From assembly GCA_016840095.1 (NCBI GenBank), contig JAEOSZ010000052.1, forward strand, positions 1 to 57,228: a stretch of 57,228 nucleotides of DNA, given 5' to 3'. Under the pieces are notes generated by a model that did no database searches, was not told the DNA's origin, and saw only the letters and a program-made list of their open reading frames with translations. A program made the translations under genes and the position numbers. The first letter of the stretch is position 1. Each line of letters begins with the position of its first letter. This stretch comes from Candidatus Heimdallarchaeota archaeon (GTDB taxonomy: Archaea > Asgardarchaeota > Heimdallarchaeia > Heimdallarchaeales > Heimdallarchaeaceae). Positions 4,283 to 51,504 of the stretch are shown here, piece after piece.

Positions 4283-4382
4283 ATTATCATCAATTTTTAT
4301 CTAATTTTTCTTAATTATTTTCTCGATTTTGTAAGCTCACTTCAAAGACCTTAAAAAGACATTGAAGCCAGTTTTCAACAAT

Positions 4383-5525: not shown

Positions 5526-5526
5526 A

Positions 5527-6393
5527 ATGGCAATTCTATTAGATGAAAATACAAAAGTGATTGTGCAAGGGATAACTGGAAAACAAGGAACTTTCCATGC
5601 AAGATCAATGATAGATTATGGTACTAAGGTTGTTGCAGGCGTTACTCCCGGAAAAGGAGGACAAGAACACTTAGGAGTACCTGTTTTTGACAGTATGAAA
5701 GAAGCTGCTGAAGCTACAGGAGCTACAGCCTCAGTAATTTTCATTCCAGCAAGATTCACTTATTCCGCTGCTTTGGAAGCTATCGATGCAGGAATTAAGC
5801 TGCTCACAGTAATAACTGAAGGTGTTCCAGTTCAGGATTCTGCTAGAATAAGACAAATAGCTCTAGATAATAACGTAACCATGGTAGGTCCAAATTGCCC
5901 AGGACTAATAAGTCCAGAATTAAGCAAGATTGGTATAATCCCAGGAAAAATCTGTTCAAAGGGAAATGTTGGAATCGTAAGCAGGAGTGGAACCCTTACT
6001 TACGAGATTATTCAAAATCTAACTGTTAATGACTTAGGCCAAACAACTTGTGTAGGTTTAGGTGGTGATCCAATCAAAGGAATTGGATTTAACGAGTGTT
6101 TAACAATGTTTGAGAATGATCCACAAACTAAGCAAATTATACTTGTTGGGGAAATTGGTGGAACTGGTGAACAACAGGCTGCAGACTTAGTTAAAAAAGA
6201 GATAACTAAACCAGTTTATGCGTTTATAGCTGGACAAACAGCACCTCCTGGAAAACAAATGGGACATGCAGGAGCTATTGTTCATGGAAAATCTGGTACC
6301 GCTAAGGAAAAAATGAGAATCTTAAGCGAAGCTGGAATTACCACAGTAAAAACATCAAGTGAAATTCCTCAAAAAATAAAAGAGAATCTATGA
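5527..6393 (+). CDS. sucD: Succinyl-CoA synthetase alpha subunit
   Basis: VQGITG, GPNCPG, SRSGTLTYE, phospho-His motif MGHAGA. Confidence 0.93.
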   Translation: MAILLDENTKVIVQGITGKQGTFHARSMIDYGTKVVAGVTPGKGGQEHLGVPVFDSMKEAAEATGATASVIFIPARFTYSAALEAIDAGIKLLTVITEGVPVQDSARIRQIALDNNVTMVGPNCPGLISPELSKIGIIPGKICSKGNVGIVSRSGTLTYEIIQNLTVNDLGQTTCVGLGGDPIKGIGFNECLTMFENDPQTKQIILVGEIGGTGEQQAADLVKKEITKPVYAFIAGQTAPPGKQMGHAGAIVHGKSGTAKEKMRILSEAGITTVKTSSEIPQKIKENL

Positions 6394-34736: not shown

Positions 34737-34882
34737 TCATATCACCGGATAGGAGGTAGTATAGATATTATTAACGATTTAAAAATCAACCGCTTGTCTT
34801 TGTAGAATTTCTAGATGGCTTTAGAGCTGTTCCTTTTCCCTCAACAATACATTTAAGAGAAAGCACCGAGCTATTTTTTTAG

Positions 34883-35983: not shown

Positions 35984-36052
35984 TTCATCATATTCTGTTC
36001 TTCTATTTCTTTTTCCCTATACTTTTTATTTAAGTAAGTTCAAGTTTCAATA

Positions 36053-36808: not shown

Positions 36809-36818
36809 TGGTGAGATA

Positions 36819-37100: not shown

Positions 37101-37153
37101 TCAGATATTAACATTAAAAAGCAGAAGTTGTAATCAATTCATGAGGAATTGTT

Positions 37154-37834: not shown

Positions 37835-37844
37835 TTGTTGAAGA

Positions 37845-38555: not shown

Positions 38556-38622
38556 ATTATCACGTCTAAAAGTAAACAAATTAAAGATTTTTCGATAGTT
38601 ATTAAAAAATTGATACTTGAGA

Positions 38623-39288: not shown

Positions 39289-39494
39289 AGAACTATTTCA
39301 AGTTTTCCTCAGAGGAATTGAAAATCTAGACACAAAATTGAGCAAATTCAGCACTAGAAAGCATGAAAGCAATTACTTAATTTAATAAATGATATAATTA
39401 ATATTTTATTATATATATAAACCAATACACAAATAAAACTTTAAATAACTAAATTTTTCACAGCGGACAGCGCTATAAATTGTGGTTAATTTTA

Positions 39495-39812
39495 ATGGGT
39501 CAATCACTAGAAAGAAGACGAAAGAAGCCAGAGTGGCCGGCTTTTGCAGACTTGGAGAAGTTCAAAGGACCAGACTCTCAGGTATATATAATTAAGGACA
39601 GATGTAAAGAGTGCGAATGGTGCATAATTTATTGTCCAGAGGAAATTTTGGAAACAGGTAATGAAATTAATGCTAAAGGGTATCATCCTCCTGTTCTAAA
39701 AGATGGCAAAACCTTTGATGATTGTGCTGAATGCCATTTCTGTGAATTAATCTGTCCAGAATTCGCAATTTATGTTAAAGTACTCGAAGAGAGTGATGCT
39801 GAAGATGAGTAA
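39495..39812 (+). CDS. korD: 2-oxoacid:ferredoxin oxidoreductase delta subunit (2x[4Fe-4S])
   Basis: CKECEWCIIYCP...NAKGYHP...CAECHFCELICPEFAI. Confidence 0.85.
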   Translation: MGQSLERRRKKPEWPAFADLEKFKGPDSQVYIIKDRCKECEWCIIYCPEEILETGNEINAKGYHPPVLKDGKTFDDCAECHFCELICPEFAIYVKVLEESDAEDE

Positions 39813-40971
39813 GCAAAAACAAGAATTTTTAGAAGTAAATACTGGAGAGCACTTTACAACAGGTAATCATGCTGCTGCTGAAGGAGCTCTTGCAGTTGGA
39901 TGTAAGTTCTTTGGAGGATATCCAATCACACCTAGTTCTGAAATAGCCGAACATATGGCTCAAAGACTTCCACAAGTAAGTGGGAATTTTGTTCAGTTTG
40001 AGGATGAGATTGCTTCAATAATTGGTATTTTAGGAGCTTCTTGGGGAGGTGCCAAGAGCATGACTGCAACATCAGGGCCAGGGTATTCATTAATGGTTGA
40101 AAACATTGGTTTGGGTATGATGACTGAAACTCCTTGCGTTATTGTCAATGTTCAAAGAGGTGGTCCTTCCACAGGATTGCCTACTCTTGTTGGACAACAG
40201 GATATAATGCAAACAAAGTGGGGATCTCATGGAGATTTTGAACCCATAGCTTTATGCCCAAGTTCTGTACAAGAGTGTTTTGAATTAACAATTGAAGCCT
40301 TCAATTATGCAGAGAAGTATAGAGTTCCTGTAACACTACTGATGGATGAAACTCTGGGTCACATGAGTGAAAGATTAGTAATTCCTGAAGGAGAGGATAT
40401 TGTCAAAGTTGACAGAAAGAAACCTAAAGTTTCTCCTGATGACTACTTACCTTACAAGGCTGATGATGATCTTATTCCTCCGATGGCTGTTGCAGGAGAA
40501 GGATACAGAGTAATGGTTACCGGATTAACTCATGATGAAAGAGGTTATCCTGATCTAAATGCAGAAACACAGGATAAGCTTGTTAGAAGAATTAATGATA
40601 AAATTCGATTAAATAAAAAAGATATCATCAAAGTGGAAGAATATCTACTAGATGATGCTGATATAGTTATCATTGCCTTTGGATCAGTAGCAAGAGCAGC
40701 TAAAGGTTCAGTAAATAGAGCAAGGGAAAAGGGAATTAAAGTGGGATTGTTGAGGTTAATAACTATTTGGCCTTTCCCAGATGAAATAATAGAAGCAATA
40801 GCTGAGAAAGTAAAGAAGATTTACGTACCTGAAATAAACTATGGACAGATAACTAGAGAAGTAGAAAGAGCTGTTCATGGGAAAACAAAAGTAAAAGGCA
40901 TTTTCAAGCTAGGTGGAGCCATTCATAATCCACAAGAAATTCTTGATGAAATTGAGGGTGATAATTCATGA
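39805..40971 (+). CDS. korA: 2-oxoacid (2-oxoglutarate):ferredoxin oxidoreductase alpha subunit
   Basis: GYPITPSSE, TATSGPG, QRGGPSTGLPT. Confidence 0.9.
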   Translation: MSKQKQEFLEVNTGEHFTTGNHAAAEGALAVGCKFFGGYPITPSSEIAEHMAQRLPQVSGNFVQFEDEIASIIGILGASWGGAKSMTATSGPGYSLMVENIGLGMMTETPCVIVNVQRGGPSTGLPTLVGQQDIMQTKWGSHGDFEPIALCPSSVQECFELTIEAFNYAEKYRVPVTLLMDETLGHMSERLVIPEGEDIVKVDRKKPKVSPDDYLPYKADDDLIPPMAVAGEGYRVMVTGLTHDERGYPDLNAETQDKLVRRINDKIRLNKKDIIKVEEYLLDDADIVIIAFGSVARAAKGSVNRAREKGIKVGLLRLITIWPFPDEIIEAIAEKVKKIYVPEINYGQITREVERAVHGKTKVKGIFKLGGAIHNPQEILDEIEGDNS

Positions 40972-41828
40972 CAGAAGAGAAAAAAGAACTATTAGAATCA
41001 GAAGAACATCCTTTGGATGACTTCTTGAGAGATGGAAGAATTCCACATATATTCTGCCCAGGATGCAGCTTAGGATCAGTAACTAATATCCTTATAGAAG
41101 CAATTAATGAATCAGAATATGATCCCAAAAATGTTGCAGTGGTGTCTGGAATAGGATGCACTGGAAGAATCGCAGGATATCTAAATTACGATAGTTTCCA
41201 TACAACACATGGAAGATCAATTCCATTTGCTATAGGATTAAGTGTTACAGATCCAGATCGTAAAGTGATAGTAGTGTCAGGAGATGGAGATCTCTTTGCA
41301 ATCGGTGGAAATCACTTTATACATGCTGCAAGACGTAATGCCAACATTACTGTAGTGTGTGTCAATAACTTCAATTATGGTATGACAGGTGGTCAAGCTG
41401 GACCAACATCATATGAAGGCCAATTCCAAACAACAGCCCCTTATGGATCTATGGAAGAACCATTCAATATTCCTAATCTTGCTGCCACATGTGGAGCAGT
41501 TTATGTAGCTCGATATACTGCATTAGATGTTAGAAGAGCAAAAGAAGCTTTTTCAGAAGCAATAGCTAAAAGAGGTTTCTCTTTCGTTGAAGTTCTAGGG
41601 AGCTGCCCAACAACATATGGTCGTCGAAATCAACTTGCAGAAGGAAAGAAAATTTTAGAATATTTTGCTGAAAAAACTGTATTAAACCATGATGCTGATA
41701 CCAAGGATGTTGGAATTTCAAAGAACAGTCCTATTATTGTGGGCAAATTTGTAGATATTGAAGATAAACCAACTCTAAATGATAATCTTATGGCTATACA
41801 AAGAGTTAGTCAAGCTAAGAAAGGGTGA
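40968..41828 (+). CDS. korB: 2-oxoacid:ferredoxin oxidoreductase beta subunit (TPP)
   Basis: FCPGC, SGIGC, HTTHGR, GDGD...NN..YGMTGGQ, SCPT. Confidence 0.9.
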   Translation: MTEEKKELLESEEHPLDDFLRDGRIPHIFCPGCSLGSVTNILIEAINESEYDPKNVAVVSGIGCTGRIAGYLNYDSFHTTHGRSIPFAIGLSVTDPDRKVIVVSGDGDLFAIGGNHFIHAARRNANITVVCVNNFNYGMTGGQAGPTSYEGQFQTTAPYGSMEEPFNIPNLAATCGAVYVARYTALDVRRAKEAFSEAIAKRGFSFVEVLGSCPTTYGRRNQLAEGKKILEYFAEKTVLNHDADTKDVGISKNSPIIVGKFVDIEDKPTLNDNLMAIQRVSQAKKG

Positions 41829-42382
41829 TAAAAATGGGTAGAGTAGAAATTCGTTTTGCAGGTTTTGGTGGTCAAGGAATAGGTCTTATGGGAAGACTTG
41901 TTGGAGAAGCAGTAAGTCTGCTAGAGAAAGGAAAGAATTCTGTTATGACTCAGAGTTATGGACCAGAGAGCAGAGGTGGAGCAAGTAGTGCAGATGTTGT
42001 TATTGATACTGATGTTATTGATTATCCTAAAGCAACTGAACTTGATTACTTTGTTGTTCTATCAGAAGAAGCTTATCACAAATACATCCCCAAACTCAAA
42101 GAAGGTGGAGTTTTGTTTGTAGAGGAAGACTTAGTTATATTAGATGATAATGCTAAGAAAGCCTCCAAAATTTTCAAAATTCCAGCTACAAAAATTGCTG
42201 AAACACTCGGAAGTAGATTGTATGCTAACATAGCTATGCTAGGTTTTGTATGTGCAAATACTACAGATATCTTCAGCAAGGAATCTATGATTACAATAAT
42301 GAAAACAAAAATCAAAAAGAGATTTGTTGAGAAAAATCTAATTGCCTTCCAACTGGGTATGGAACACAAATCTGACTCTTGA
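41825..42382 (+). CDS. korC: 2-oxoacid:ferredoxin oxidoreductase gamma subunit
   Basis: AGFGGQG, QSYGPESRGG, NIAMLG. Confidence 0.9.
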   Translation: MIKMGRVEIRFAGFGGQGIGLMGRLVGEAVSLLEKGKNSVMTQSYGPESRGGASSADVVIDTDVIDYPKATELDYFVVLSEEAYHKYIPKLKEGGVLFVEEDLVILDDNAKKASKIFKIPATKIAETLGSRLYANIAMLGFVCANTTDIFSKESMITIMKTKIKKRFVEKNLIAFQLGMEHKSDS

Positions 42383-42402
42383 AAACAAATGTAGGTTAAG
42401 AA

Positions 42403-42852
42403 ATGTCTACACAAAGTAACACAGAACTAGAAGAATTCGAACCAAACATAATTGGTTTCTTATGTAACTGGTGTTCCTATGCAGGAGCTGATCTTGCTGG
42501 AACCAGCAGAATCCAATATCCTCCTAATGTTAAAATCATTAAGGTCATGTGTTCTGGAAGAGTAAATCCAATGTACATAATTAATGCATTTCAACAAGGA
42601 GCAGATGGAGTACTAATTAGTGGTTGTCATCCAGGAGATTGTCATTATACTCATGGAAACTATCTTGCTAGGAGAAGAATTGCTACTATGAAGAAACTTC
42701 TGGAATTTATGGGTATAGAACCCGATAGAGTTAAGATGACTTGGGTTTCTGCTGCAGAAGGTAGAAAGTATGCTGACGTCGTTAGAGAACTTACTAACGA
42801 CATCAAAAAATTAGGTCCAATGACCAAATTTAGGAGGGAAAAAGAATGGTAG
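42403..42852 (+). CDS. mvhD: MvhD/FlxD [2Fe-2S] subunit
   Basis: FLCNWCSY.GAD, MCSGRV, GCHPGDCHY, WVSAAEG. Confidence 0.93.
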   Translation: MSTQSNTELEEFEPNIIGFLCNWCSYAGADLAGTSRIQYPPNVKIIKVMCSGRVNPMYIINAFQQGADGVLISGCHPGDCHYTHGNYLARRRIATMKKLLEFMGIEPDRVKMTWVSAAEGRKYADVVRELTNDIKKLGPMTKFRREKEW

Positions 42853-43829
42853 AGAATAAAGAACTAATCAAGGTAATTGAGGAAACCGTTTCTCGAGAAG
42901 ACGTGAAATACGTCATCGGTTATAAGAGAGGCACATATGGTTTTCAAATCAAACCTGCCTTTGCATATAGCGCTGAAACCGCAAAGGAGTTCTTTTACTC
43001 TCCATTATGTTCAAAAAATTTAGCAATTTATCCACTTCTGGAGGAAAAACTACCATTACGAAGAGGGGAAGAAGAGGATAAAAGAAAAATCGGTATCGTT
43101 GTGAAGGGATGTGATTCTAGGGCAATAATTCAAATCATCCAAGAGAAAGGTTTGGAAAGAGAAGATGTTGTTCTAATTGGTATTCCTTGTAAAGGTGTAA
43201 TAGAGCCTAAGAAAATAGAAAGCAGATTTCCTAGGCAATCAAAATTTGTTGAAGTTGAGGAAAAGGATGGTAATTATGTCTTCGAAATTGATGGAAAAAG
43301 CCAAGTGATTCCTAAAGGAGAATTACTTTCAGATGTTTGCAAAAGCTGTGAATATCCAAATCCACCTTTATATGATGTTTTGATTGGAGAGATAGAAGAA
43401 GAATTTGAACCTGAACAATTTAGCAGAGTAGATGAATTAGCTGAGAAGTCTTTGGAAGAGAGATGGGCGTATTGGGAGAAACATTTCCAGAATTGTATAC
43501 GTTGTTATGCTTGTAGAGAAGCATGTCCTCTTTGTTATTGTAAAACCTGTATGGCAGATTTGTTAGATCCCCAATGGGTTAGACGATCAGTTAACCTATC
43601 AGAAAATACTGCTTGGAACGTTATGCGAGCATTTCATCTTGCAGGTAGGTGTATCAGTTGTGGTGAATGTGAACGTTCGTGTCCTGTTAATATTCCATTA
43701 ATGGAATTGAACAAATTCATTGAGAAAGAAGTCAAAGAGATGTTTAATTATACATCTGGAATTGATGTTGAAGAAAAACCATTCTTAGGAAGTTTTCGAC
43801 CAGATGATCCGGAGGATTTCATCAAGTAG
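42846..43829 (+). CDS. flxC: FlxC-like [4Fe-4S] protein
   Basis: KGCDSR, CIRCYACREACPLCYC..C, HLAGRCISCGECERSCP. Confidence 0.75.
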   Translation: MVENKELIKVIEETVSREDVKYVIGYKRGTYGFQIKPAFAYSAETAKEFFYSPLCSKNLAIYPLLEEKLPLRRGEEEDKRKIGIVVKGCDSRAIIQIIQEKGLEREDVVLIGIPCKGVIEPKKIESRFPRQSKFVEVEEKDGNYVFEIDGKSQVIPKGELLSDVCKSCEYPNPPLYDVLIGEIEEEFEPEQFSRVDELAEKSLEERWAYWEKHFQNCIRCYACREACPLCYCKTCMADLLDPQWVRRSVNLSENTAWNVMRAFHLAGRCISCGECERSCPVNIPLMELNKFIEKEVKEMFNYTSGIDVEEKPFLGSFRPDDPEDFIK

Positions 43830-43837
43830 GTGATAAA

Positions 43838-44875
43838 ATGGAACAATTGTTATTAGAAAAGGAAAAACTGTCTGAGTTGCTTAAAGAGATTGGATCAAAG
43901 TATGAACTTATTGGACCAAAGGAAGAAAACGGATTTCTAGCGTTCAAAAAGATAGAAGATCCAAAAGAGATTAACTTGGATGTATTGCTCTCAAGAGTAC
44001 CTCCTAAATCTTTGATATTTCAACAAACTGAAACACTCTTCAAGTATGCCAAAGGTAAAGATTCCAAAGTTCAAACACCTCAAATTGATGAATCTCCTAG
44101 AGTTATTTTTGGAATTCGACCTTGTGACGCTAGAGGATATGATATTCTAGACCCAGTTTTTATGGGTAAAAAAGAAGACGACTACAAAGACCCATTTTAT
44201 ACTAAGAGAAGAAATAGAAGTCTACTAATAGGTGTTAGTTGCAATGAACCAGATACAAACTGCTTCTGCACTTCATTTGATGACAGTCCAGCAAATCCTA
44301 AACATTTAGACATTCTCTTTACAGATATTGGTGATTATTATTATATTGAAGTTGTTACTGAAAAAGGACAAGATCTAATTAAGAATGTTAGTAAAATTTT
44401 CTCCAAAGCAACTGATAAGGAAACCAGTTTAAGAAAAGAAACTGAAAACGCAGCAATTAATGCAATTTCTAGAAAAATGAATACTGAAGGTGCCGCAGAA
44501 AAACTAAATGGACTATTTAATCATGAGTTCTGGTTCGAAGCTGCCAGAGGTTGTATTGGTTGTGGAATTTGTACATATTTATGTCCAACATGTCATTGTT
44601 TTGATATGCAAGACGAAAGTACTTTGAAACTTGGTGGAAAAGTTCGTGTTTGGGACTCCTGCATGTATCCTGAATATACTCATCATGCTTCAGGTCATAA
44701 TCCTCGTCCTTCGAGGATGAACAGAGTTCGAAATAGAGTCTATCACAAATTCAACTACTTCCCCAAAAATGATGGTATTTTTGGTTGCACTGGTTGTGGT
44801 AGATGTATAGATTATTGTCCTGTAAATATTGACATAATCGAAATAATTGATGATGTTAAGGAGGTTAAGGCATGA
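43838..44875 (+). CDS. flxB: FlxB/AsrA/HydB-like [4Fe-4S] protein
   Basis: GIRPCD, CFCTS, CIGCGICTYLCPTCHC, WDSC, CTGCGRCIDYCP. Confidence 0.78.
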   Translation: MEQLLLEKEKLSELLKEIGSKYELIGPKEENGFLAFKKIEDPKEINLDVLLSRVPPKSLIFQQTETLFKYAKGKDSKVQTPQIDESPRVIFGIRPCDARGYDILDPVFMGKKEDDYKDPFYTKRRNRSLLIGVSCNEPDTNCFCTSFDDSPANPKHLDILFTDIGDYYYIEVVTEKGQDLIKNVSKIFSKATDKETSLRKETENAAINAISRKMNTEGAAEKLNGLFNHEFWFEAARGCIGCGICTYLCPTCHCFDMQDESTLKLGGKVRVWDSCMYPEYTHHASGHNPRPSRMNRVRNRVYHKFNYFPKNDGIFGCTGCGRCIDYCPVNIDIIEIIDDVKEVKA

Positions 44876-45717
44876 CAGATGAGAATCCCTATCAACCTTG
44901 GTTAGCTAAAATAATCAACATTAAAGAAGAAGCAAGCGGAGCAAGAGCTATTAAGACTTTCAAACTTGAGTTTCAAGATGAGGAAGTAAAGAAGAATTTC
45001 ACCTATTTACCAGGTCAATGTGTCATGATTAGCGTATTAGGCACTGGAGAAAGCATGTTTGCTATTTCATCATCACCCACCCAGCAAGGTTATATTGAAG
45101 TCAGTGTTATGAGATATGGAAAACACACAACTACACTTCATCAAAAGGATGTTGGAGATATTGTAGGTGTAAGAGGTCCTTATGGTAACAATTTTCCATT
45201 AGAAGAATGGAAAGGTAAAAACATGTTATTCTTAGGTGGAGGAATAGGTCAAGCTCCACTTCGTTCTGTTTATAATTACTGCATAGATAATAGAGAAGAT
45301 TATGCAAACATAGACATCGTTTATGGTGCTCGAACATCTAGTGATCTTTGTTACAAAGATGAATTTGCAGAAATGCGTAAAAAGGGTGATAATATAAGTG
45401 TCCATCTTTCAATAGATGTTGAAGAAGAAGGGTGGAAAGAATTTGTGGGATTTGTTCCTGATAACTTAAAGAGAATAGAACCCTCACCAGAAAATACGAT
45501 CGCAATAACTTGTGGTCCCCCAATTATGATTAGATTTGTAATTCAAGCTCTATTGGAATTAGGTTTCAAAGAAGAGCAAATTTATACAACTTTGGAAATG
45601 AGAATGAAATGCGGGATAGGAATGTGTGGCAGGTGCAACATAGGAAATCTCTATGTTTGCAGAGATGGACCAGTATTCTCATATGTCCAAATTAAGGATA
45701 TTCAAGGAGATATGTAA
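44872..45717 (+). CDS. flxA: FlxA/AsrB/HydG-like FAD, NAD(P)H and [2Fe-2S] protein
   Basis: PGQ, RGPYGN, GGGIG, CGPP, MKCGIGMCGRC...CRDGPVF. Confidence 0.82.
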   Translation: MTDENPYQPWLAKIINIKEEASGARAIKTFKLEFQDEEVKKNFTYLPGQCVMISVLGTGESMFAISSSPTQQGYIEVSVMRYGKHTTTLHQKDVGDIVGVRGPYGNNFPLEEWKGKNMLFLGGGIGQAPLRSVYNYCIDNREDYANIDIVYGARTSSDLCYKDEFAEMRKKGDNISVHLSIDVEEEGWKEFVGFVPDNLKRIEPSPENTIAITCGPPIMIRFVIQALLELGFKEEQIYTTLEMRMKCGIGMCGRCNIGNLYVCRDGPVFSYVQIKDIQGDM

Positions 45718-45732
45718 AGGCGTGAAAACATT

Positions 45733-47700
45733 ATGAAAATTGGAGTTTATGTTTGTGAATGTGGAACCAACATTGCAAGTACTGTTGATGTTGAGGAATT
45801 AGTAGAACAAGCAAAAGAATTTCCAAATGTAGAAGTAAGTAGATTGTACAAGTATGTCTGTTCTGATCCTGGTCAAGAGATTATTAAAAGTGACATTGAT
45901 GAAAAAGGATTAGATAGAATAGTGGTTGCTGCATGTTCACCTCGAATGCATGAGCCAACATTCAGAGCTGTTCTTGAAGATAAAGGATTGAATCCTTATG
46001 TCTTAGAAATTGTAAATATTCGAGAACAAGTTTCCTGGGTTCATGATAAGAAGGAAACAGGTACTGAAAAAGCTGCTTCACTGCTTAAAGGTGCAGTTGT
46101 TAGAGCTGCTTTGATGCATCCATTAGAGAGAAAGAAAGTAGGAGTAACACACACAGCACTTGTAATCGGTGGAGGTATAGCTGGAATCCAAGCAGCACTT
46201 GACTTAGCTGATATGGGATTTGAGACCACACTGGTAGAAAAATCTGCAACAATTGGAGGAAAAATGGCACAACTAGATAAGACCTTTCCAACACTAGATT
46301 GTTCCGCATGTATCTTAAGTCCCAAAATGGTAGATGTCAGTCGTCATCCAAATATCGATTTAATGGCTTTGAGTGAAGTTGTAGAAGTCGATGGTTATGT
46401 AGGAAATTTCAAAGTTAAAATACAAAGAAATCCTCGTTACGTAATTGAAGATAAATGCACTCTCTGTGATGATTGTGTTCCAGTATGTCCAGTTATTGAA
46501 CATGATGAGTTCAACCAAGGATTTACACCAAGAAGAGCAATTTACATCCCCTATCCTCAAGCAGTCCCAGCATCTTATCTTATTGATCCCAATTCTTGTT
46601 TAGGAATAGATCCTCTCATCTGTTCGAAATGTAAAGATGTCTGTGGTCCAGAAGCAATTGATTTTGATCAACAACCAAAAATTATAGAGAAAGAATTTGG
46701 TGCAATAGTTGTTGCTACTGGTTACGAAACTTATCCAATAGAAAATATAGGTGAGTATGGATATGGAACAATTCCAGATGTTATTTCAGGCTTAGATTTT
46801 GAAAGAATAATTTCTGCAAGTGGTCCAACCTTAGGAAAAATACGTCGTCCATCTGATGGGAAAGTGCCAGAAACAGTAGTTTTCATTCATTGTGCAGGTT
46901 CTAGAGATCCAAGTAAACATTTGCCGTATTGTTCAAAGGTCTGCTGTATGTATGCAACAAAACATGCTTTACAGTACAAACATGTTGTTCATGATGGAAC
47001 AGCTATTAACTTCTTCATAGATGTGAGAACAGCAGGTAAGGATTATGAGGAATTCTATCAAAGAGCAGCTGAAGAAGACCAAGTAATTTACATACGTGGT
47101 AAAGTATCTGAAATATTCCAAGATGGAGAAAAATTGCTTATTAAGGGAGCCGATACTTTAACTGGAGAAACAGTAGAACTCCATGCTGATTTAGTAGTTC
47201 TAGCTACAGGAATAATCCCAAGTAAAGGTACTAAGGAAATTGCTAGTCTTCTAAACTTATCAGTTGGTATGAATGGATTCATCAGAGAAGCACATCCAAA
47301 ACTTAAACCAGTTGACACAGCAATTTCAGGAATCTTTGTTGCAGGTACAGCTACTGGTCCTAAAGATATTCCAGATACAGTTTCAAATGCAAGTGGTGCA
47401 GCTTCTAGAGCAGCAGGTATTTTATCTCAAGATGAGTTAGAAATTGAAGGAACTGTTGCAACTGTTGATGAAGATCTTTGTAGAGGTTGTGGTCTATGTG
47501 CTGAAGCTTGTCCTTATAGTGCTATTGAAGTTAATGCAGTTAATAAATACGGACACACTATGCGAGTTGCTTTTGTCAATGAAGCTCTCTGCAAAGGATG
47601 TGGAAGCTGTGCTGCAGCTTGTCTGAACAGTGCTATCAATCAACTAGGATATACTGATAGTCAAATTCTTGCCCTTATTGAGGCATTGGGAGAGGATTAA
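45733..47700 (+). CDS. hdrA: Heterodisulfide reductase subunit A
   Basis: YVCECGTNI, GGGIAG, KTFPTLDCSAC, CAGSRD, YCSKVCCMY, ferredoxin motifs. Confidence 0.96.
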   Translation: MKIGVYVCECGTNIASTVDVEELVEQAKEFPNVEVSRLYKYVCSDPGQEIIKSDIDEKGLDRIVVAACSPRMHEPTFRAVLEDKGLNPYVLEIVNIREQVSWVHDKKETGTEKAASLLKGAVVRAALMHPLERKKVGVTHTALVIGGGIAGIQAALDLADMGFETTLVEKSATIGGKMAQLDKTFPTLDCSACILSPKMVDVSRHPNIDLMALSEVVEVDGYVGNFKVKIQRNPRYVIEDKCTLCDDCVPVCPVIEHDEFNQGFTPRRAIYIPYPQAVPASYLIDPNSCLGIDPLICSKCKDVCGPEAIDFDQQPKIIEKEFGAIVVATGYETYPIENIGEYGYGTIPDVISGLDFERIISASGPTLGKIRRPSDGKVPETVVFIHCAGSRDPSKHLPYCSKVCCMYATKHALQYKHVVHDGTAINFFIDVRTAGKDYEEFYQRAAEEDQVIYIRGKVSEIFQDGEKLLIKGADTLTGETVELHADLVVLATGIIPSKGTKEIASLLNLSVGMNGFIREAHPKLKPVDTAISGIFVAGTATGPKDIPDTVSNASGAASRAAGILSQDELEIEGTVATVDEDLCRGCGLCAEACPYSAIEVNAVNKYGHTMRVAFVNEALCKGCGSCAAACLNSAINQLGYTDSQILALIEALGED

Positions 47701-47710
47701 AGAGGTGTAG

Positions 47711-48124
47711 ATGATGTCATATGAATATATAAAATTCGGAAAAGAGGAGAAAGCCTTCATTGCTAAAATTGAAGAAATCTCTGGTGAGAACATCTACAGC
47801 TGCTACCAATGTGGCAAGTGTTCTGCAGGTTGTGTTTTCAGTGATAAAATGGATAGAAGTGTAAATCAACTTATACATCTTATCCAAATAGGGCAAAAAG
47901 AGAAAGTTTTGCAGGCAAATACTCACTGGGTATGTTCTAGTTGTTTAACATGTTCAGTAAGGTGTCCCAGAGAAATAGATGTTGCTGCATTAATGGAAGC
48001 AGTCAGAGAATATTGTTTAAGAGAGGAACCTGAAAAAATCAAAATTTCAGAAATTCCTAAAGAAGTATTAGATAAACTACCAAACATTGCATTGGTTAGT
48101 AATTTTCGGAAGAAAACAGGGTGA
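47711..48124 (+). CDS. hdrC: Heterodisulfide reductase subunit C
   Basis: CYQCGKCSAGC, WVCSSCLTCSVRCP. Confidence 0.92.
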   Translation: MMSYEYIKFGKEEKAFIAKIEEISGENIYSCYQCGKCSAGCVFSDKMDRSVNQLIHLIQIGQKEKVLQANTHWVCSSCLTCSVRCPREIDVAALMEAVREYCLREEPEKIKISEIPKEVLDKLPNIALVSNFRKKTG

Positions 48125-48131
48125 TATATAA

Positions 48132-49049
48132 ATGGTACAATACTCATACTTCCCAGGATGTAACCTTAAAACCAACGCCAAAGGGTTTGAAGAAACAGCA
48201 ATTGCAGTTAGTAAAAAGCTAAGTTCAGAGTTAGTTGAAATGCCAAACTGGAATTGTTGTGGAACCGTACATACCATGACTTCTGACAATATCATGAAAC
48301 GTATTGCTCCTACTAGAGTGTTATCAAGATCAAGAAAACACATAGAAGAGCTAGAGGAATCGCCAAACCAAGTTGTGACACTTTGTTCAATGTGTAACAG
48401 CACACTCAAAATTGTTAACAAAGAAATTAACGATGATGAAGATACTCTAGTTAAAATCAACTACCAGCTAGAAGAAGATGAAGAAACTTATGAAAAAGAT
48501 ATGGAAGTAAAACACTTCTTAGAGATTCTCAGAGATTCAGTTGGTTATGATGAAATTTCCAAGAAAGTTGTTAAACCACTTAAAGGCATGAAAGTTTCTC
48601 CTTACTATGGGTGTATGTTGCTACATCCTGAAGAAGCTAAAATTGATGATGAGGAGATGCCAGATGTTTTAGAAAGTTTAGTTGAAAGTTTAGGTGCTGA
48701 ACTAGTAATGTCACCTTTATTCAAATATTGTTGTGGATCTTATCACATTGTTGATCAAGAAGATATTGTATCTTCACAAGTCCAAAAAATTGTTGAAGCT
48801 GCAACAAGAAGAGGTGCTAATTCACTTGTTGTAGCCTGTCCATTATGTGCATACAATATAGATCAACAACAAAAAGCAATGGCAAAAATATCACCAAGTT
48901 TTAGACCAATTCCAGTCTTTTACTTTACTCAATTGATGGCTATAGCGATGGGAGAACCAATCAAGATAAATCATTTTAATGATCATTTCATTAATCCTGA
49001 ACCTCTCCTCAAGGATCTGGGATTAACTGGGAGGAAAAAAACAAAATAG
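48132..49049 (+). CDS. hdrB: Heterodisulfide reductase subunit B (two CCG domains)
   Basis: FPGC...NCCG...CSMC and YYGC...CCG...CPLC. Confidence 0.92.
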   Translation: MVQYSYFPGCNLKTNAKGFEETAIAVSKKLSSELVEMPNWNCCGTVHTMTSDNIMKRIAPTRVLSRSRKHIEELEESPNQVVTLCSMCNSTLKIVNKEINDDEDTLVKINYQLEEDEETYEKDMEVKHFLEILRDSVGYDEISKKVVKPLKGMKVSPYYGCMLLHPEEAKIDDEEMPDVLESLVESLGAELVMSPLFKYCCGSYHIVDQEDIVSSQVQKIVEAATRRGANSLVVACPLCAYNIDQQQKAMAKISPSFRPIPVFYFTQLMAIAMGEPIKINHFNDHFINPEPLLKDLGLTGRKKTK

Positions 49050-49059
49050 AGGATTAAAA

Positions 49060-49779
49060 ATGTCAAAGACAAAAACAAAAGAAGAGAATGCACTCCCCAC
49101 AGTGAAAATATACATTATGGGCTCAGCACATGAAGTACCAGCTTCTCTAACTATTATGAAAGCAATGGAGTATGCTGGATTCAAAATCAAAAGGGGATCA
49201 GGATGTAGAGCAGGATTCTGTGGAGCTTGTGGAACTGTCTATCGAAAAGCAGGTGACTACAGAATCTATGCTGCATTAGCATGTCAGACACAAGTTGAAG
49301 ACGGAATGGTTTTAACACAATTACCATTCATACCTGCTCCAAAAGGAAAATATGATGTAGATAAACTTCTACCAACTGCAAGCTCAATTCTGAAATTCTA
49401 TCCAGAAGTAGCAAGGTGCTTGAGCTGCAATGCATGTTCCAAAGTTTGTCCTCAAGAGATACAAGTTATGGACTATGTGCAATATAGTCTCCAAGGTCAG
49501 ATTGACAAAGCTGCAGAGGAATCATTTGATTGCGTTCAATGTGGTTTATGTGCAATTCGATGTCCTGCAGAGATAGCACAATATCATGTCGGTATGCTTG
49601 CCAGAAGACTACACGGGAAGTACAATATGAGCACTCCTGAATCTCTACAGGAAAGAGTTGCAGAAATCGATAATGGTGTTTATGAAGAAGGTTTCAATGA
49701 TCTAATATCGCTCTCAAAGAATGATTTGAAGAAGAGATACACTGAACGAGATTTCGTAGATCAGAAAAAGGCGGGATGA
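49060..49779 (+). CDS. Fumarate reductase/succinate dehydrogenase-type Fe-S subunit (TfrB N-terminal-like)
   Basis: [2Fe-2S] GCRAGFCGAC...LAC; two full CxxCxxCxxxCP motifs. Confidence 0.8.
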   Translation: MSKTKTKEENALPTVKIYIMGSAHEVPASLTIMKAMEYAGFKIKRGSGCRAGFCGACGTVYRKAGDYRIYAALACQTQVEDGMVLTQLPFIPAPKGKYDVDKLLPTASSILKFYPEVARCLSCNACSKVCPQEIQVMDYVQYSLQGQIDKAAEESFDCVQCGLCAIRCPAEIAQYHVGMLARRLHGKYNMSTPESLQERVAEIDNGVYEEGFNDLISLSKNDLKKRYTERDFVDQKKAG

Positions 49780-51446
49780 AAATGAAGATAATAAAAGGTT
49801 ACCCTGAAGATATGCGAAAAAGCATAGATAATGTAAATAAAACAAGAAGTAAGCGTATCGATCAAATTATAGAGGATTTAACTCTAGATGAAAGAAAAGA
49901 AGTACTTGACAATTTTCACCCAGATTACAATCCAAAGTATAAAAGAAATATTTCTTGGGGTCCAAACAAAGGCGATAATGTTCCAAACGAAGTAGCAGAT
50001 GTAATCGAAGCTTACCCAATGGTAAATCCAGATGATATTGATATGAACCAGATTGACTATGATATCAATACTTTAATCATTGGTGCTGGTGGAGCTGGAA
50101 CTTCAGCTGCACTATGGGCGAAATATTCTGGATTACCAAAAGAAGAGATATTGCTTGTAACAAAACTCAGACTTGGAGATTGTAACACTGTTATGGCTCA
50201 AGGAGGGATTCAAGCTGCAGATAGACCAGTAGATAATCCACTAATTCACTACCTTGATGCTATAGGTGGAGGACATTTTGAAAATAATCCCAAACTAGTT
50301 AGAGCTTTAGTCAATGATGGTCCTAAAATCATCAAATGGCATAAAGATCTTGGAATGATGTATGATTGTCTAGATGATGGTGAATTCATTGAAAATCCTG
50401 GTGGAGGAACATCTCGAAACAGGATGCATTGTTCAAAAGATTATACTGGAATGGAAATTTTTAGAACTCTAAAAGATGAAATTATCAACCATGATATTCC
50501 TTATCTTGAATTTAGTCCTGCAGTAGAACTCATAACTGATGAAACAGGAAAAATTGCTGGAGCTATATTGTACAATATCGAAACAAAACAGTATTTTGTT
50601 GTAAGAGCTAAAACCACAATCCTAACTACAGGAGGATTTGGTAGGCTCCACGTTGCAGGTTTTCCAACTACCAATCACTATGGGGCTACTATGGATGGTG
50701 TAGTTATGGCTTATAGGGCTGGCGTTAAGCTAAGAGATTTGGATGCAACACAATTTCATCCAACTGGTGCTGCATTTCCAGAACAGATAGTTGGATTACT
50801 AATTACAGAAAAAGTAAGAAGTTTAGGAGCACAAGTTCTAGGTCGAAACGGAGAACAAATATGTTACCCACTAGAACCCAGAGATGTTGAAGCATCATCC
50901 ATTATCAAATGTTGTACTGCTACTGATAATTATATTGAAACTCCAACTCAAATGAGAGGTGTTTGGTTAGACAGTCCTTTGATCGAGGAGATAAAAGGTA
51001 AAGGAACTATAATGGATAATCTTAGTGCAATGTTTAGAATGATGAACAGATTTGATATTGATATTACAGAGGATCCAATACTTGTTTATCCAACATTACA
51101 TTATCAGAATGGTGGTATAGAACATGATGAAAACTGTTATACCTCACTTAAAGGCCTTTTAGCTGCTGGAGAAATTTCTGGTGGAGTTCATGGTAAGAAT
51201 CGTCTTATGGGTAATTCTCTTTTAGAGATTAATGTTTTCGGCAGAAGAGCAGGTATAACAGCTGCAAAGGAATATGAGAAAAAGAGTACAGTTGGAAAAC
51301 TTTCTCTGGCACATGTTCATAAGTCGATTAAATCTTTAGATGCACTAAATCTAAAAGATAAGAGATATTCTCCAACAATTTTACCTGAATATAGAAGTGA
51401 TAATGTTAAAGATAGATTAGTTCAGTTGTATGAAGAATCTCTCTAA
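49776..51446 (+). CDS. Fumarate reductase/succinate dehydrogenase flavoprotein (TfrA-like)
   Basis: GAGGAG, MAQGG, QFHPTG, TEKVR, PRD, HYQNGG, HGKNRLMGNSL. Confidence 0.88.
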   Translation: MKMKIIKGYPEDMRKSIDNVNKTRSKRIDQIIEDLTLDERKEVLDNFHPDYNPKYKRNISWGPNKGDNVPNEVADVIEAYPMVNPDDIDMNQIDYDINTLIIGAGGAGTSAALWAKYSGLPKEEILLVTKLRLGDCNTVMAQGGIQAADRPVDNPLIHYLDAIGGGHFENNPKLVRALVNDGPKIIKWHKDLGMMYDCLDDGEFIENPGGGTSRNRMHCSKDYTGMEIFRTLKDEIINHDIPYLEFSPAVELITDETGKIAGAILYNIETKQYFVVRAKTTILTTGGFGRLHVAGFPTTNHYGATMDGVVMAYRAGVKLRDLDATQFHPTGAAFPEQIVGLLITEKVRSLGAQVLGRNGEQICYPLEPRDVEASSIIKCCTATDNYIETPTQMRGVWLDSPLIEEIKGKGTIMDNLSAMFRMMNRFDIDITEDPILVYPTLHYQNGGIEHDENCYTSLKGLLAAGEISGGVHGKNRLMGNSLLEINVFGRRAGITAAKEYEKKSTVGKLSLAHVHKSIKSLDALNLKDKRYSPTILPEYRSDNVKDRLVQLYEESL

Positions 51447-51504
51447 ACACCCATCTTTTTTTCATAATTTTTTTATATGTATATTTCTAAGAAAATCTGA
51501 TTCA

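Follow-up and report, generated by a model that had tools for sequence, protein, structure and literature searches.

Organization of the locus

The window analyzed here is a 57,228-nt stretch, contig JAEOSZ010000052.1 of the Candidatus Heimdallarchaeota assembly GCA_016840095.1. It contains a predicted operon of 13 co-oriented, tightly packed genes, in which neighbors overlap by up to 8 nt or lie up to 20 nt apart (Table 1). Motifs of the GGTGA, GGAGG or GAGGTG type lie 5-10 nt 5' of seven of them (KorB, FlxC, FlxB, FlxA, HdrC, HdrB and FrdB), and for KorA the ATG at 39805 is favored over 39772. A minus-strand gene diverges from KorD across a spacer that carries TATA-like runs around 39405-39450. 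At the other end, T7-CATAA-T7 follows the FrdA stop codon. A 204-aa ORF at 51430 overlaps the end of FrdA, but it most likely begins at an in-frame ATG at 51505, which leaves the end of the operon where the first-pass annotation had placed it. The gene spacing, Shine-Dalgarno sites and T-rich end described in that annotation are thus all borne out.

All 13 products are soluble. Among the operon proteins, the only 19-residue window with transmembrane-like hydropathy is a Rossmann-type stretch of FlxA (1.73), and searches with Pfam, NCBIfam and hydropathy found no hydrogenase, formate dehydrogenase or membrane anchor among the 13 genes. The operon encodes a soluble, membrane-free redox system. 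The earlier statement that these components are missing holds for this operon, but in sibling species MvhDGA occupies this very position.

Table 1. Features of the locus, with the evidence for each assignment
Feature	Coordinates	Strand	Basis
SucC-SucD, ADP-forming succinyl-CoA synthetase (outside the operon)	4362..6393	+	NF001913 379 bits (cut-off 370), NF004230 422 bits (cut-off 336)
AT-rich intergenic spacer, presumed promoter region	39289..39494	+	sequence read; 5' of KorD
Predicted operon, 13 genes: KorDABC, FlxDCBA, HdrA-HdrC-HdrB, FrdB-FrdA	39495-51446	+	ORF listing, Pfam, NCBIfam
KorD, 2x[4Fe-4S] delta subunit of 2-oxoacid:ferredoxin oxidoreductase	39495..39812	+	Fer4 families, 8 Cys
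KorA, alpha subunit	39805..40971	+	POR_N + PFOR_II
KorB, TPP-binding beta subunit	40968..41828	+	TPP_enzyme_C
KorC, gamma subunit	41825..42382	+	POR family; NF006323 176 bits
FlxD, MvhD-type [2Fe-2S] adaptor docking on HdrA	42403..42852	+	FlpD 195 bits
FlxC, Fe-S subunit	42846..43829	+	4Fe-4S dicluster families, weak FrhB_FdhB_C match, 16 Cys
FlxB, Fe-S subunit (HydB/AsrA-like)	43838..44875	+	Fer4_22
FlxA, NAD(P)H-binding FAD/[2Fe-2S] subunit (HydG-like)	44872..45717	+	FAD_binding_6 + NAD_binding_1 + DHODB_Fe-S_bind
HdrA, flavoprotein with presumed bifurcating FAD	45733..47700	+	735 bits to 5ODC_A, full length
HdrC, 2x[4Fe-4S] connector	47711..48124	+	Fer4_8/17
HdrB, two CCG domains for two non-cubane [4Fe-4S] clusters	48132..49049	+	CCG x2
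FrdB, SdhB/TfrB-N-like Fe-S subunit, [2Fe-2S] + 2x[4Fe-4S]	49060..49779	+	weak Fer2, Fer4 dicluster
FrdA, soluble fumarate-reductase-type flavoprotein	49776..51446	+	FAD_binding_2 only
Oligo-T tract T7-CATAA-T7, likely archaeal terminator	51447..51480	+	sequence directly 3' of FrdA stop

Subunits and cofactor motifs

Among the Kor subunits, KorA scores 579 bits against NF006412 (2-oxoacid:acceptor oxidoreductase alpha; cut-off 411) and matches 1yd7_A, 8ys5_A (2-oxoglutarate synthase) and 6n2n_A in the PDB. The top NCBIfam match of KorB is the 2-oxoglutarate ferredoxin oxidoreductase beta subunit (230 bits, under its cut-off) and its top PDB match is 8ys5_C, while the best matches of KorD, OGOR_delta and OorD, are both under cut-off. 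In the Flx module, FlxD aligns with the MvhD-like C-terminus of HdrA2, FlxB matches ShyB, HydB and AsrA, all under cut-off, and FlxA scores 281 bits against NF006220.

HdrA reaches 840 bits against the HdrA2 model. Alignment with 5ODC_A confirms the earlier observation that it keeps the FER glutamate and the CCMYxxK lysine: the 'FER' Glu and the 'CCMYATK' Lys correspond to E356 and K409 of M. thermolithotrophicus HdrA. Across 36 sequences, the 8 cluster cysteines of HdrC and all 10 motif cysteines of HdrB are invariant. FrdB matches residues 22-85 of TfrB, has three sets of invariant cysteines (C49/54/57/75, C120/123/126/130 and C158/161/164/168) and contains no CCG domain according to Pfam.

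FrdA has a 95-aa N-terminal extension and lacks the Succ_DH_flav_C domain, and its fold matches FrdA/SdhA. It covers positions 6-424 of the 546-position TfrA model with 300 bits (cut-off 718), falls under every NCBIfam cut-off and scores nearly as well against nadB as against TfrA. Residues H328, T344, E345, R348, R369, H442 and R476 are invariant in 12 aligned family members, all of which lack the histidine that binds FAD covalently; across the aligned family an Asn (N137 here) takes its place. Soluble fumarate reductases contain non-covalent FAD, and loss of the covalent link in E. coli FrdA abolishes succinate oxidation but preserves fumarate reduction. We infer the substrates of FrdA and Kor, whose subunits score below the NCBIfam equivalog cut-offs. 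Nothing that the electron path would need is missing: every domain and cluster ligand is there, without variation among the aligned family members.

Conserved linkage and exchange of the donor module

In 10 of 10 sibling-species loci examined, the order Kor...HdrA-HdrC-HdrB-FrdB-FrdA is kept and the donor module varies: Flx only, a second HdrA with MvhDGA, both, or neither. This pattern is as expected if donors plug into an Hdr-Frd core. MvhDGA sits at exactly the Flx position in some siblings, so the donor is an exchangeable module.

Members of the FrdA family (about 550 aa, with the N-terminal extension and without the covalent-FAD histidine or Sdh C-terminal domain) are found in 596 or more archaeal and bacterial species. 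The 80 loci compared are the best matches to the query, a non-random sample of non-independent relatives. In the well-flanked loci (FrdA with 8 kb or more on its upstream side and 4 kb or more on its downstream side; n = 41), FrdA has FrdB as a neighbor in 41/41, HdrB, HdrC and HdrA in 36/41 each, MvhD/FlxD in 35/41, MvhA in 19/41 and FlxA in 5/41; Kor is also present in 25/41, as judged by KorA. The linkage in relatives that the first-pass annotation had proposed to search for therefore exists, both among siblings and across phyla, which shows that the arrangement is selected rather than accidental. The cluster is widespread rather than an Asgard speciality. Thermotogota, Cloacimonadota and Thermoplasmata are among its carriers, and contigs of Methanofastidiosia and Theionarchaea carry the four-gene core HdrC-HdrB-FrdB-FrdA alone.

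Predicted contact between FrdB and HdrB/HdrC

By its domain content, the HdrC-HdrB-FrdB-FrdA core has the predicted architecture of a split thiol:fumarate reductase. In a complex prediction of the kind suggested earlier, FrdB docked onto HdrB and HdrC with a score of 0.86, compared to 0.01 for the best of three controls. Of 80 solved complexes, 58 reach the mark for this score, as do 2 of 110 mismatched pairs; these counts hold only roughly for this three-chain job with custom alignments. Separate runs share 91% or more of their contacts, and the pLDDT of FrdB is at least 79. In the predicted interface, FrdB residues 106-147, which include the first [4Fe-4S] motif, face HdrB residues 8-14 and 39-42 (the first CCG motif) and the HdrC C-terminus. 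A sequence search found no solved CCG-SdhB complex.

Proposed function and alternatives

The Hdr-Frd portion of the operon is likely to be a bifurcating core. We give about even odds to the fuller reading, in which NADH drives an electron-bifurcating fumarate reductase of the Hdr type and Kor draws on the reduced ferredoxin that it makes, probably within a reductive branch of the TCA cycle. FlxA would accept the hydride of NAD(P)H, and electrons would pass via FlxB, FlxC and FlxD to the HdrA FAD, where the pair would be split. The low-potential electron would reduce ferredoxin. The high-potential electron would travel directly, without a thiol, by way of HdrC, both non-cubane HdrB clusters and the three FrdB clusters to FrdA, where the non-covalent FAD would reduce fumarate to succinate. 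HdrC-HdrB-FrdB-FrdA would thus be a thiol:fumarate reductase in four genes wired directly to HdrA, so that fumarate replaces the heterodisulfide of methanogens. KorDABC, encoded in the same putative operon, would be the ferredoxin partner, most likely using reduced ferredoxin to carboxylate succinyl-CoA to 2-oxoglutarate; SucCD, encoded elsewhere in the window, may supply this succinyl-CoA as the step between Frd and Kor. With standard potentials of -320 mV for NADH, +30 mV for fumarate and about -500 mV for ferredoxin, bifurcation from NADH to ferredoxin and fumarate is exergonic. The operon therefore probably makes reduced ferredoxin with fumarate as the "downhill" acceptor. If so, each fumarate reduced would yield one reduced ferredoxin, precisely what the later step of a reductive TCA branch or cycle requires.

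The same core could instead work catabolically, which we consider doubtful but worth weighing. Kor would then oxidize 2-oxoglutarate from glutamate or peptide fermentation to yield reduced ferredoxin, fumarate (for example from aspartate) would be an NADH sink, both arms would end in succinate, and a hydrogenase or another sink would take up all reduced ferredoxin. Fermentation is the usual reading for Heimdallarchaeaceae and for many of the other carriers (Thermotogota, Cloacimonadota, Thermoplasmata); in such organisms Kor would work in the oxidative direction and SucCD would yield ATP. In this genome, a metagenome-assembled one (89% complete, 7.8% contamination), an aspartase/fumarase-type gene (FumC/AspA) adjoins canonical SdhA, with its histidine ('RSHS'), and SdhB on contig C25. 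Kor is also taken as catabolic in the Asgard literature (e.g. PMC9723716, on a related archaeon). However, catabolism gives no stoichiometric reason for Kor to share an operon with a ferredoxin-reducing complex. The genome further encodes a class I fumarase and a cluster of IDH-like, aconitase-like and ATP-citrate-lyase-like genes; this cluster, and the lack of a stand-alone citrate synthase match in the genome, fit the reductive route better, and the gammaproteobacterial counterpart lies among rTCA genes (PMC6315080). A two-step, thiol-mediated scheme is unlikely. HdrABC would reduce a diffusible or protein-bound disulfide, and the HdrB site with FrdBA would re-oxidize the thiols with fumarate, making a direct HdrB-to-FrdB wire unnecessary. 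The conserved disulfide-site cysteines of HdrB, all ten invariant, would fit a thiol/disulfide intermediate as well as a plain wire, and HdrB aligns full length with methanogen HdrB (136 bits to 9sfi_C). The core also stands alone in Methanofastidiosia, users of CoM and CoB; methanogen TfrAB, as cited in PMC6315080, uses CoM-SH and CoB-SH, and Rubin-Blum et al. offer this option (PMC6315080). Yet a search of the assembly found no HdrB-type protein besides that of the operon, so thiol formation and thiol consumption would both fall to one site; the assembly has three HdrA-type genes, and its second HdrA locus (C126) is without HdrBC. Searches of the 89%-complete genome for ComA, McrA and DsrC found none, FrdB has no CCG domain of its own, and the predicted docking sets its cluster region against the HdrB CCG motif.

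That FrdA and FrdB act on L-aspartate or another enoate or 2-enoyl acid, outside the TCA cycle, is very unlikely. The divergence of FrdA, with its low scores, near-equal nadB match, N-terminal extension and missing C-terminal domain, would suit such a role, but the full fumarate/succinate catalytic set is invariant, an SdhB-like partner that L-aspartate oxidases lack is present in 41/41 loci, and recurrent linkage to Kor with SucCD nearby fits succinate as product. Least credible is confurcation, the reverse direction also offered in the first-pass annotation, in which succinate and Kor-derived reduced ferredoxin reduce NAD+ (protons in Mvh variants), so that succinate is oxidized without a quinone. 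In principle, complexes of the Hdr type can run both ways, Mvh-Hdr has been proposed to evolve H2 in Asgard archaea (PMC9723677), and a syntrophic partner that keeps H2 low could draw the reaction forward. Against this, FrdA lacks the covalent-FAD histidine in 12/12 aligned members, the genome also encodes a canonical SdhA that has this histidine, and the mean of +30 and -500 mV, about -235 mV, makes electron transfer to NAD+ at -320 mV uphill under standard conditions. NADH-driven reduction of ferredoxin and fumarate with Kor as partner, the forward direction of the first-pass annotation, is a hypothesis supported by comparative genomics, conserved cofactor motifs and the predicted interface; the whole explanation rests on genomics and prediction.

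Comparison with known systems

FlxABCD-HdrABC of Desulfovibrio vulgaris (Ramos et al. 2015, as cited in PMC6315080) resembles the present operon in FlxA-D and HdrA-C domain content and adjacency. It is associated with alcohol dehydrogenase, and its disulfide acceptor is proposed to be DsrC, whereas here DsrC was not found in the assembly and a fumarate reductase follows HdrB. With methanogen MvhADG-HdrABC (5ODC, 8RVU, 9SFI), HdrB and HdrC align over their entire length and share every cluster ligand, HdrA gives 735 bits to 5ODC_A over its full length, and the corresponding operon of sibling species includes MvhDGA. Methanogens use CoM-S-S-CoB as the acceptor; in the Heimdallarchaeum assembly CoM and Mcr genes were not found, and the input in this window is Flx, not a hydrogenase.

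Methanothermobacter thiol:fumarate reductase TfrAB (Heim et al. 1998, as cited in PMC6315080) is likewise a soluble fumarate reductase with an SdhB-like module ([2Fe-2S], two [4Fe-4S]) joined to CCG domains, and it serves a reductive route to 2-oxoglutarate. TfrB is one fused protein, whereas FrdB and HdrB are separate and HdrC is added; FrdA differs from TfrA in its termini and its score, as described above. In Type E succinate:quinone oxidoreductases (Sulfolobales SdhABEF; Campylobacter MFR SdhABE), a CCG-domain subunit also adjoins SdhAB and a second [4Fe-4S] replaces the [3Fe-4S] cluster. These enzymes are quinone-linked and membrane-associated, whereas the Heimdallarchaeum system has HdrA and HdrC and no covalent-FAD histidine, and HdrB matches the MFR SdhE model with 133 bits, far under the cut-off of 500. 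Miura et al. (2008) reportedly described a soluble five-subunit NADH-dependent fumarate reductase in Hydrogenobacter thermophilus, which by description is similarly membrane-free, NADH-linked, part of a reductive TCA cycle and equipped with extra Fe-S and NADH-binding subunits. To our knowledge, neither HdrA nor ferredoxin reduction has been reported for it. The enzyme is listed in PMC13147460.

The closest counterpart is the korABCD/flxABCD-hdrABC/tfrAB cluster that lies among the rTCA genes of Ca. Endoriftia persephone and of Thioflavicoccus mobilis (Rubin-Blum et al. 2019, PMC6315080; Mitchell et al. 2024, PMC11636981) and that PMC13147460 also discusses. By gene content, both cases have the same four modules in one co-directional cluster, and in both the hypothesis is that NADH electrons go to ferredoxin (for OGOR) and fumarate. 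These hosts are bacterial autotrophs with Kor between hdrA and hdrBC and with ACL, Pnt and Rnf genes nearby; Heimdallarchaeum is an archaeal host with the order Kor-Flx-HdrACB-FrdBA, and its siblings swap Flx for Mvh hydrogenase. The bifurcation concept is not new, having been put forward for tubeworm symbionts and published for Endoriftia with co-expression data (PMC6315080, PMC11636981) and for Thioflavicoccus, so the first-pass annotation overrated the novelty of the arrangement. What the present analysis adds is the archaeal case, the breadth of occurrence and the swapping of modules.

Organization of the operon

The open reading frame (ORF) list and the Pfam and NCBIfam matches place 13 co-oriented genes in four modules, Kor, Flx, Hdr and Frd. 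Neighbouring genes overlap by at most 8 nt or are separated by no more than 20 nt, and seven starts are preceded by a Shine-Dalgarno-like GGTGA, GGAGG or GAGGTG. An AT-rich spacer of 206 nt lies on the 5' side, T7-CATAA-T7 directly follows the FrdA stop, and transmembrane-like segments are absent from all 13 products. Every element of this layout that the first-pass annotation had described (co-oriented genes, tight junctions, Shine-Dalgarno sites and a T-rich end) was confirmed in the ORF list, the domain matches and the sequence. We conclude that the Kor-Flx-Hdr-Frd feature is real, conserved and functionally coherent.

A 204-aa ORF at 51430 was rejected as a fourteenth gene, because it more likely starts past the T tract, at an in-frame ATG (51505). 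This histidine-phosphatase-family gene is next after FrdA in most sibling species; its probable start at 51505 (MKNSYIFFRHA...) lies downstream of an oligo-T tract and a TATA-like run.

Locations and contents of the operon and related loci. Plain coordinates are in the window; C, contig of the source genome; L, locus fetched for comparison; G014, a sibling genome.
Feature	Location	Strand	Content and basis
Whole operon	39495-51446	+	KorDABC-FlxDCBA-HdrA-HdrC-HdrB-FrdB-FrdA
KorD, KorA, KorB, KorC		+	Four-subunit 2-oxoacid:ferredoxin oxidoreductase, Kor/Oor clade (Pfam, NCBIfam)
FlxD (MvhD type), FlxC, FlxB, FlxA		+	FlxA with FAD, NAD(P)H and [2Fe-2S] domains (Pfam, NCBIfam)
HdrA, HdrC, HdrB		+	Hdr module (Pfam, NCBIfam)
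FrdB, FrdA		+	SdhB-like Fe-S protein and SdhA/FrdA-like flavoprotein (Pfam, NCBIfam)
SucC-SucD	4362-6393	+	ADP-forming succinyl-CoA synthetase; both above NCBIfam cut-offs
Histidine-phosphatase-family gene	51430-52044	+	
Second HdrA locus	C126, about 34600-44100	+	Two MvhD, a 54%-identical HdrA and a 1122-aa HdrA-like protein
Other CCG protein	C165, L107:1027-3629	+	HdrD/GlcF-like gene, then GlcD-like FAD oxidase
Tight IDH-like/aconitase-like/ACL-like cluster	C49, L105:4443-12784	+	Isocitrate/homoisocitrate-dehydrogenase-like gene; split and fused LeuCD-type aconitase-like genes; 480-aa SucC-like protein; 714-aa SucD-like + citryl-CoA-lyase fusion (ATP-citrate-lyase architecture)
Canonical Sdh locus	C25, L106:2-3856	+	SdhA ('RSHS' His, 748 bits), SdhB, FumC/AspA-type class II fumarase/aspartase
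Protease gene between HdrA and HdrC	G014, L016:6723-7244	-	Operon without Mvh and without Flx
HdrA between KorC and MvhD	L024:2617-4566	+	Asgardarchaeia MAG; uncalled in the record

Conservation and exchange of the input module

The source genome is a metagenome-assembled genome (MAG) of 3.44 Mb in 165 contigs, 89% complete with 7.8% contamination. Near-identical public FrdA proteins are labelled Candidatus Heimdallarchaeum, Heimdallarchaeaceae or Heimdallarchaeota, and nearly all species searched within the genus have FrdA orthologues at 72-92% identity. Kor and the block HdrA-HdrC-HdrB-FrdB-FrdA are retained in all 10 sibling loci; two of the sibling contigs end inside the Kor genes, leaving KorB-KorC alone there. 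The segment between KorC and HdrA takes four forms. It holds FlxDCBA only in seven genomes, the window's included; a second HdrA with an MvhD-MvhG-MvhA NiFe hydrogenase in two; both Flx and the second HdrA/Mvh in one; and nothing in one. In the three forms other than FlxDCBA-only, a hydrogenase maturation protease lies between HdrA and HdrC. Because this segment varies while Kor and Hdr-Frd stay together, the electron-input module is exchangeable. The protease gene retained in G014 looks like a remnant of an Mvh module that has since been lost.

Outside the genus, the FrdA family extends to at least 596 GTDB species at 54-65% identity. Archaeal carriers among the matches listed are Thermoplasmatota, Bathyarchaeia, Theionarchaea, Methanofastidiosa, Culexarchaeia, Thermoproteota and other Asgard lineages; bacterial carriers among them are Bipolaricaulota, Thermotogota, Chloroflexales, WOR-3, Spirochaetota, Bacillota, Aminicenantes, Cloacimonadota and others. 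We fetched 80 loci, with no Chromatiaceae or Endoriftia sequence among them, and counted the 41 that had enough flank. As the fetched loci are the best query matches, close relatives included, these counts give a trend rather than a frequency: FrdB is present in 41 of 41; HdrB, HdrC and HdrA in 36 each; an MvhD-type gene in 35; KorA in 25, each time with HdrA and HdrB; MvhA in 19; and FlxA in 5. The conserved linkage of kor, hdr and frd genes that the first-pass annotation proposed to check is thus borne out, in the siblings as in the wider set.

HdrC-HdrB-FrdB-FrdA stands by itself as a minimal unit on Methanofastidiosia and Theionarchaea contigs, and the arrangement KorDABC-HdrA-MvhDGA-protease-HdrCB-FrdBA occurs in a second Asgard lineage. 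Among 301 Asgard genomes sampled, 61 genomes and 19 of the 70 genera have orthologues. Within the window's own family these turn up in 25 of 28 genomes, but in none of the 15 searched from the three other families of its order. In a quick FrdA tree (SH-aLRT, midpoint root), the Heimdallarchaeum clade is monophyletic and archaeal and bacterial rows are interleaved, a pattern that fits a horizontally mobile module and carries no claim on donor or direction of transfer.

Two of the fetched records call for comment. FrdA of a Spirochaetaceae-labelled MAG (L060) is near-identical to that of a Thermoplasmatota-labelled one (L066), with branches of 0.007 and 0.013 and the same neighbours, as would result from mixed-up bins or from transfer in the very recent past. 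The uncalled HdrA of L024 has an open frame apart from one in-frame TGA at 4141, which may be a selenocysteine codon or an error.

Features of the subunits

The alpha, beta, gamma and delta subunits of Kor are all present (POR_N/PFOR_II, TPP_enzyme_C, POR and 2x[4Fe-4S] domains), and their closest solved relatives in the PDB are 2-oxoglutarate:ferredoxin oxidoreductase (OGOR)-type enzymes. The 2-oxoglutarate-specific equivalog cut-offs are missed (KorA 430 vs 579, KorB 230 vs 364, KorD 46 vs 125), and the sole Kor model passed in NCBIfam is that for a generic 2-oxoacid alpha subunit. We infer specificity for 2-oxoglutarate from pathway context.

The Flx set is complete, with FlxB and FlxC as Fe-S proteins. 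HdrA matches the solved Methanothermococcus thermolithotrophicus HdrA (5ODC_A) over its full length with 735 bits. The Glu of 'FER' and the Lys of 'CCMYATK', which had been singled out from the sequence as residues of the bifurcating FAD, do align with E356 and K409 of 5ODC_A, reported with the 2017 structure as FAD-site residues of bifurcating HdrA. Across 36-sequence alignments, HdrB keeps two complete CCG cysteine motifs with all 10 Cys invariant, and HdrC two [4Fe-4S] motifs with 8 invariant Cys. This HdrB is the only HdrB-type protein in the 89%-complete assembly.

The genome has three HdrA-type genes, and the two outside the operon share a second locus with two MvhD and without HdrBC. 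The contig of that locus has no CCG protein, and the locus may depend on HdrBC-FrdBA of the window. The other CCG protein of the genome forms, with its neighbour, a Dld-HdrD type pair known from other Asgard lineages.

FrdA (556 aa) has FAD_binding_2 as its sole Pfam match (residues 100-482), a conserved 95-residue N-terminal extension and no Succ_DH_flav_C (C-terminal Sdh/Frd) domain. On the model for TfrA, of the methanogen thiol:fumarate reductase Tfr, it scores 300 bits where the cut-off is 718, and the alignment stops at model position 424 of 546. Aligned to Escherichia coli SdhA, it keeps all the dicarboxylate-site residues (H328, T344, E345, R348, R369, H442 and R476) and has Asn137 at the position of the covalent-FAD His; both the catalytic set and Asn137 are invariant in 12 diverse family members. 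The predicted fold, from a model of moderate confidence (pLDDT 71.7), matches FrdA, SdhA and flavocytochrome c3. FrdB carries one [2Fe-2S] motif of plant type along with two CxxCxxCxxxCP motifs, both complete, and none of the three varies across 36 sequences; judged by these motifs, its cluster set is of the TfrB or type E SdhB type, unlike classical SdhB.

Predicted docking of FrdB to HdrB and HdrC

A complex prediction of HdrB, HdrC and FrdB scored 0.86, and the best of three controls 0.01. Of 80 solved complexes 58 attain the score mark, as do 2 of 110 mismatched pairs; both counts hold only roughly because the job used our own alignments and three chains. Contacts agreed between runs by at least 91%, and partner pLDDT was at least 79. 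In the predicted interface, HdrB contributes its first CCG motif and HdrC its C-terminus, both set against the first [4Fe-4S] motif of FrdB. Sequence comparison detected no CCG-SdhB complex in the PDB, which makes recall of a solved structure an unlikely source of the pass. The model supports binding of FrdB to HdrB/HdrC.

A candidate electron-bifurcating fumarate reductase

In the simplest path, electrons from NAD(P)H would pass through FlxA, FlxB/FlxC and FlxD to the HdrA FAD. From there one electron would go to ferredoxin and the other through HdrC, HdrB, FrdB and the FrdA FAD to fumarate. HdrC-HdrB-FrdB-FrdA has the cofactor content of methanogen Tfr, whose TfrB is a fusion of FrdB-like and CCG parts; electron flow between CCG and SdhB-type clusters is thus biochemically precedented. 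By textbook potentials NADH lies at -320 mV, fumarate at +30 mV and ferredoxin at about -500 mV, which makes the coupled reaction exergonic. ComA, McrA and DsrC had no match in the 89%-complete genome; given this and the single HdrB-type protein, fumarate is the only evident high-potential acceptor for Hdr here. With the conserved linkage, the cofactor motifs and the predicted docking, the forward mechanism proposed from the sequence, NADH electrons split between ferredoxin and fumarate, is the best-supported reading, and we regard a bifurcating Hdr-Frd core as probable.

The reverse mechanism, succinate oxidation to NAD+, had also been raised. To our knowledge, non-covalent variants and soluble fumarate reductases reduce fumarate and do not oxidize succinate, and the missing covalent-FAD His of FrdA argues for fumarate reduction. 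The genome encodes a canonical His-bearing SdhA elsewhere, and so has two unrelated fumarate/succinate enzymes; the reverse mechanism is therefore unlikely. The canonical locus sits at a contig edge, where any upstream anchor genes are lost. FrdA as an L-aspartate oxidase was rejected because FrdA always comes paired with an SdhB-like subunit. An enzyme of the quinone-linked type E was likewise rejected, since the operon has no membrane or amphipathic anchor and no covalent-FAD His, and includes HdrA and HdrC.

Each fumarate reduced would yield one reduced ferredoxin, the one that Kor requires next on a reductive route leading from fumarate to 2-oxoglutarate by way of succinate and succinyl-CoA. 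SucC-SucD, for the step between Frd and Kor, lies 33 kb upstream on the same strand, and contig C22 has a class I fumarase. The genome's only citrate-synthase-family match sits in the C49 cluster, whose ATP-citrate-lyase (ACL)-like and LeuCD-type enzymes are atypical, and no stand-alone citrate synthase was matched in the genome. SucCD, fumarase, the C49 cluster and the missing stand-alone citrate synthase fit the reductive route. The main rival is a catabolic reading in which Kor would run oxidatively and fumarate would serve as the electron sink, with the same Hdr-Frd mechanism. We give the bifurcating core together with a reductive Kor an even chance.

Mvh/Flx-HdrABC genes are common in non-methanogens, Asgard archaea among them, and genome papers usually assume a CoM/CoB cycle that these organisms cannot make. 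Taken together, the operon, the variants in sibling species and the numerous relatives suggest that the high-potential acceptor of Mvh/Flx-HdrABC in non-methanogens is fumarate, and that 2-oxoglutarate synthesis has a direct supply of low-potential ferredoxin. If this is correct, there would be a concrete target for purification, for which cultured carriers (Oscillochloris, Thermotogota relatives) may exist; the reductive TCA branch would be energetically cheaper; and metabolic models would improve for Heimdallarchaeaceae, which among archaeal groups stand nearest to eukaryotes. More tentatively, and at somewhat less than even confidence, we suggest that HdrBC with its non-cubane clusters acts as a thiol-free wire into FrdB. 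The complex would then be a distinct class of bifurcating NADH- or H2:fumarate/ferredoxin oxidoreductase, and this, rather than heterodisulfide reduction, would be what Mvh/Flx-HdrABC chiefly does in many Archaea and Bacteria other than methanogens. If so, the old question of Hdr's substrate in Asgard archaea would be answered, and the Heimdallarchaeum enzyme would feed a reductive TCA route.

Comparison with known systems

In its Flx domains, HdrA, and HdrB and HdrC motifs, the operon has the structure of FlxABCD-HdrABC; the proposed acceptor there is DsrC or another thiol/disulfide, whereas here a fumarate reductase follows HdrB. FrdA shares the fumarate/succinate catalytic set of TfrAB but neither reaches the TfrA equivalog score nor has its C-terminal-domain architecture. 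TfrB is one protein ([2Fe-2S], 2x[4Fe-4S] and two CCG), here split into FrdB and HdrB with HdrC added. TfrAB takes electrons from CoM-SH and CoB-SH; ComA and McrA gave no match in this genome, which is 89% complete. The operon's action is most likely Tfr-like, with architecture and score placing it outside Tfr itself. Type E succinate:quinone oxidoreductases (SdhABEF/MFR) carry covalent 8-alpha-histidyl FAD where FrdA has Asn; their SdhE anchor model (MFR_anch_SdhE) gives 133 bits against a cut-off of 500, and the HdrB model and PDB HdrB score better.

Asgard papers treat Hdr-Mvh and thiol:fumarate reductase as separate enzymes in a hypothetical CoM/CoB cycle. Papers on WOR-3, Cloacimonadota, Culexarchaeia, Sifarchaeia and Hermodarchaeota likewise list Hdr-Mvh and fumarate reductase apart, with no linkage, and Poudel et al. 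(2018), writing on Hdr gene neighbourhoods, name neither fumarate nor oxoglutarate. We found no description of an Asgard or widespread Mvh-/Flx-linked module in a search that left subscription journals mostly uncovered, so an earlier one may exist.

The closest precedent is bacterial. Tubeworm symbionts and Thioflavicoccus mobilis have korABCD and tfrAB interspersed with flxABCD-hdrABC in their rTCA cluster, and Rubin-Blum et al. proposed a complex carrying NADH electrons to OGOR and fumarate reductase (PMC6315080). Mitchell et al. found the cluster genes co-expressed (PMC11636981), and a 2026 survey repeated the model and reported that it was not seen in the other autotrophic bacteria studied (PMC13147460). 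Co-directional korABCD, flxABCD-hdrABC and a two-subunit soluble fumarate reductase are common to the Endoriftia-type module (PMC6315080) and ours. Candidates for the other rTCA genes in our genome are SucCD, the class I fumarase and the ACL-like/aconitase-like/IDH-like cluster, with its atypical ACL-like and LeuCD-type enzymes. The operon is an archaeal member of an already hypothesised system, whose concept is in print for tubeworm symbionts. Our additions are how widely the module occurs, the exchange of Flx for Mvh inputs between natural variants, a core that amounts to Tfr in split form, and a predicted HdrB-FrdB interface that can be put to the test.
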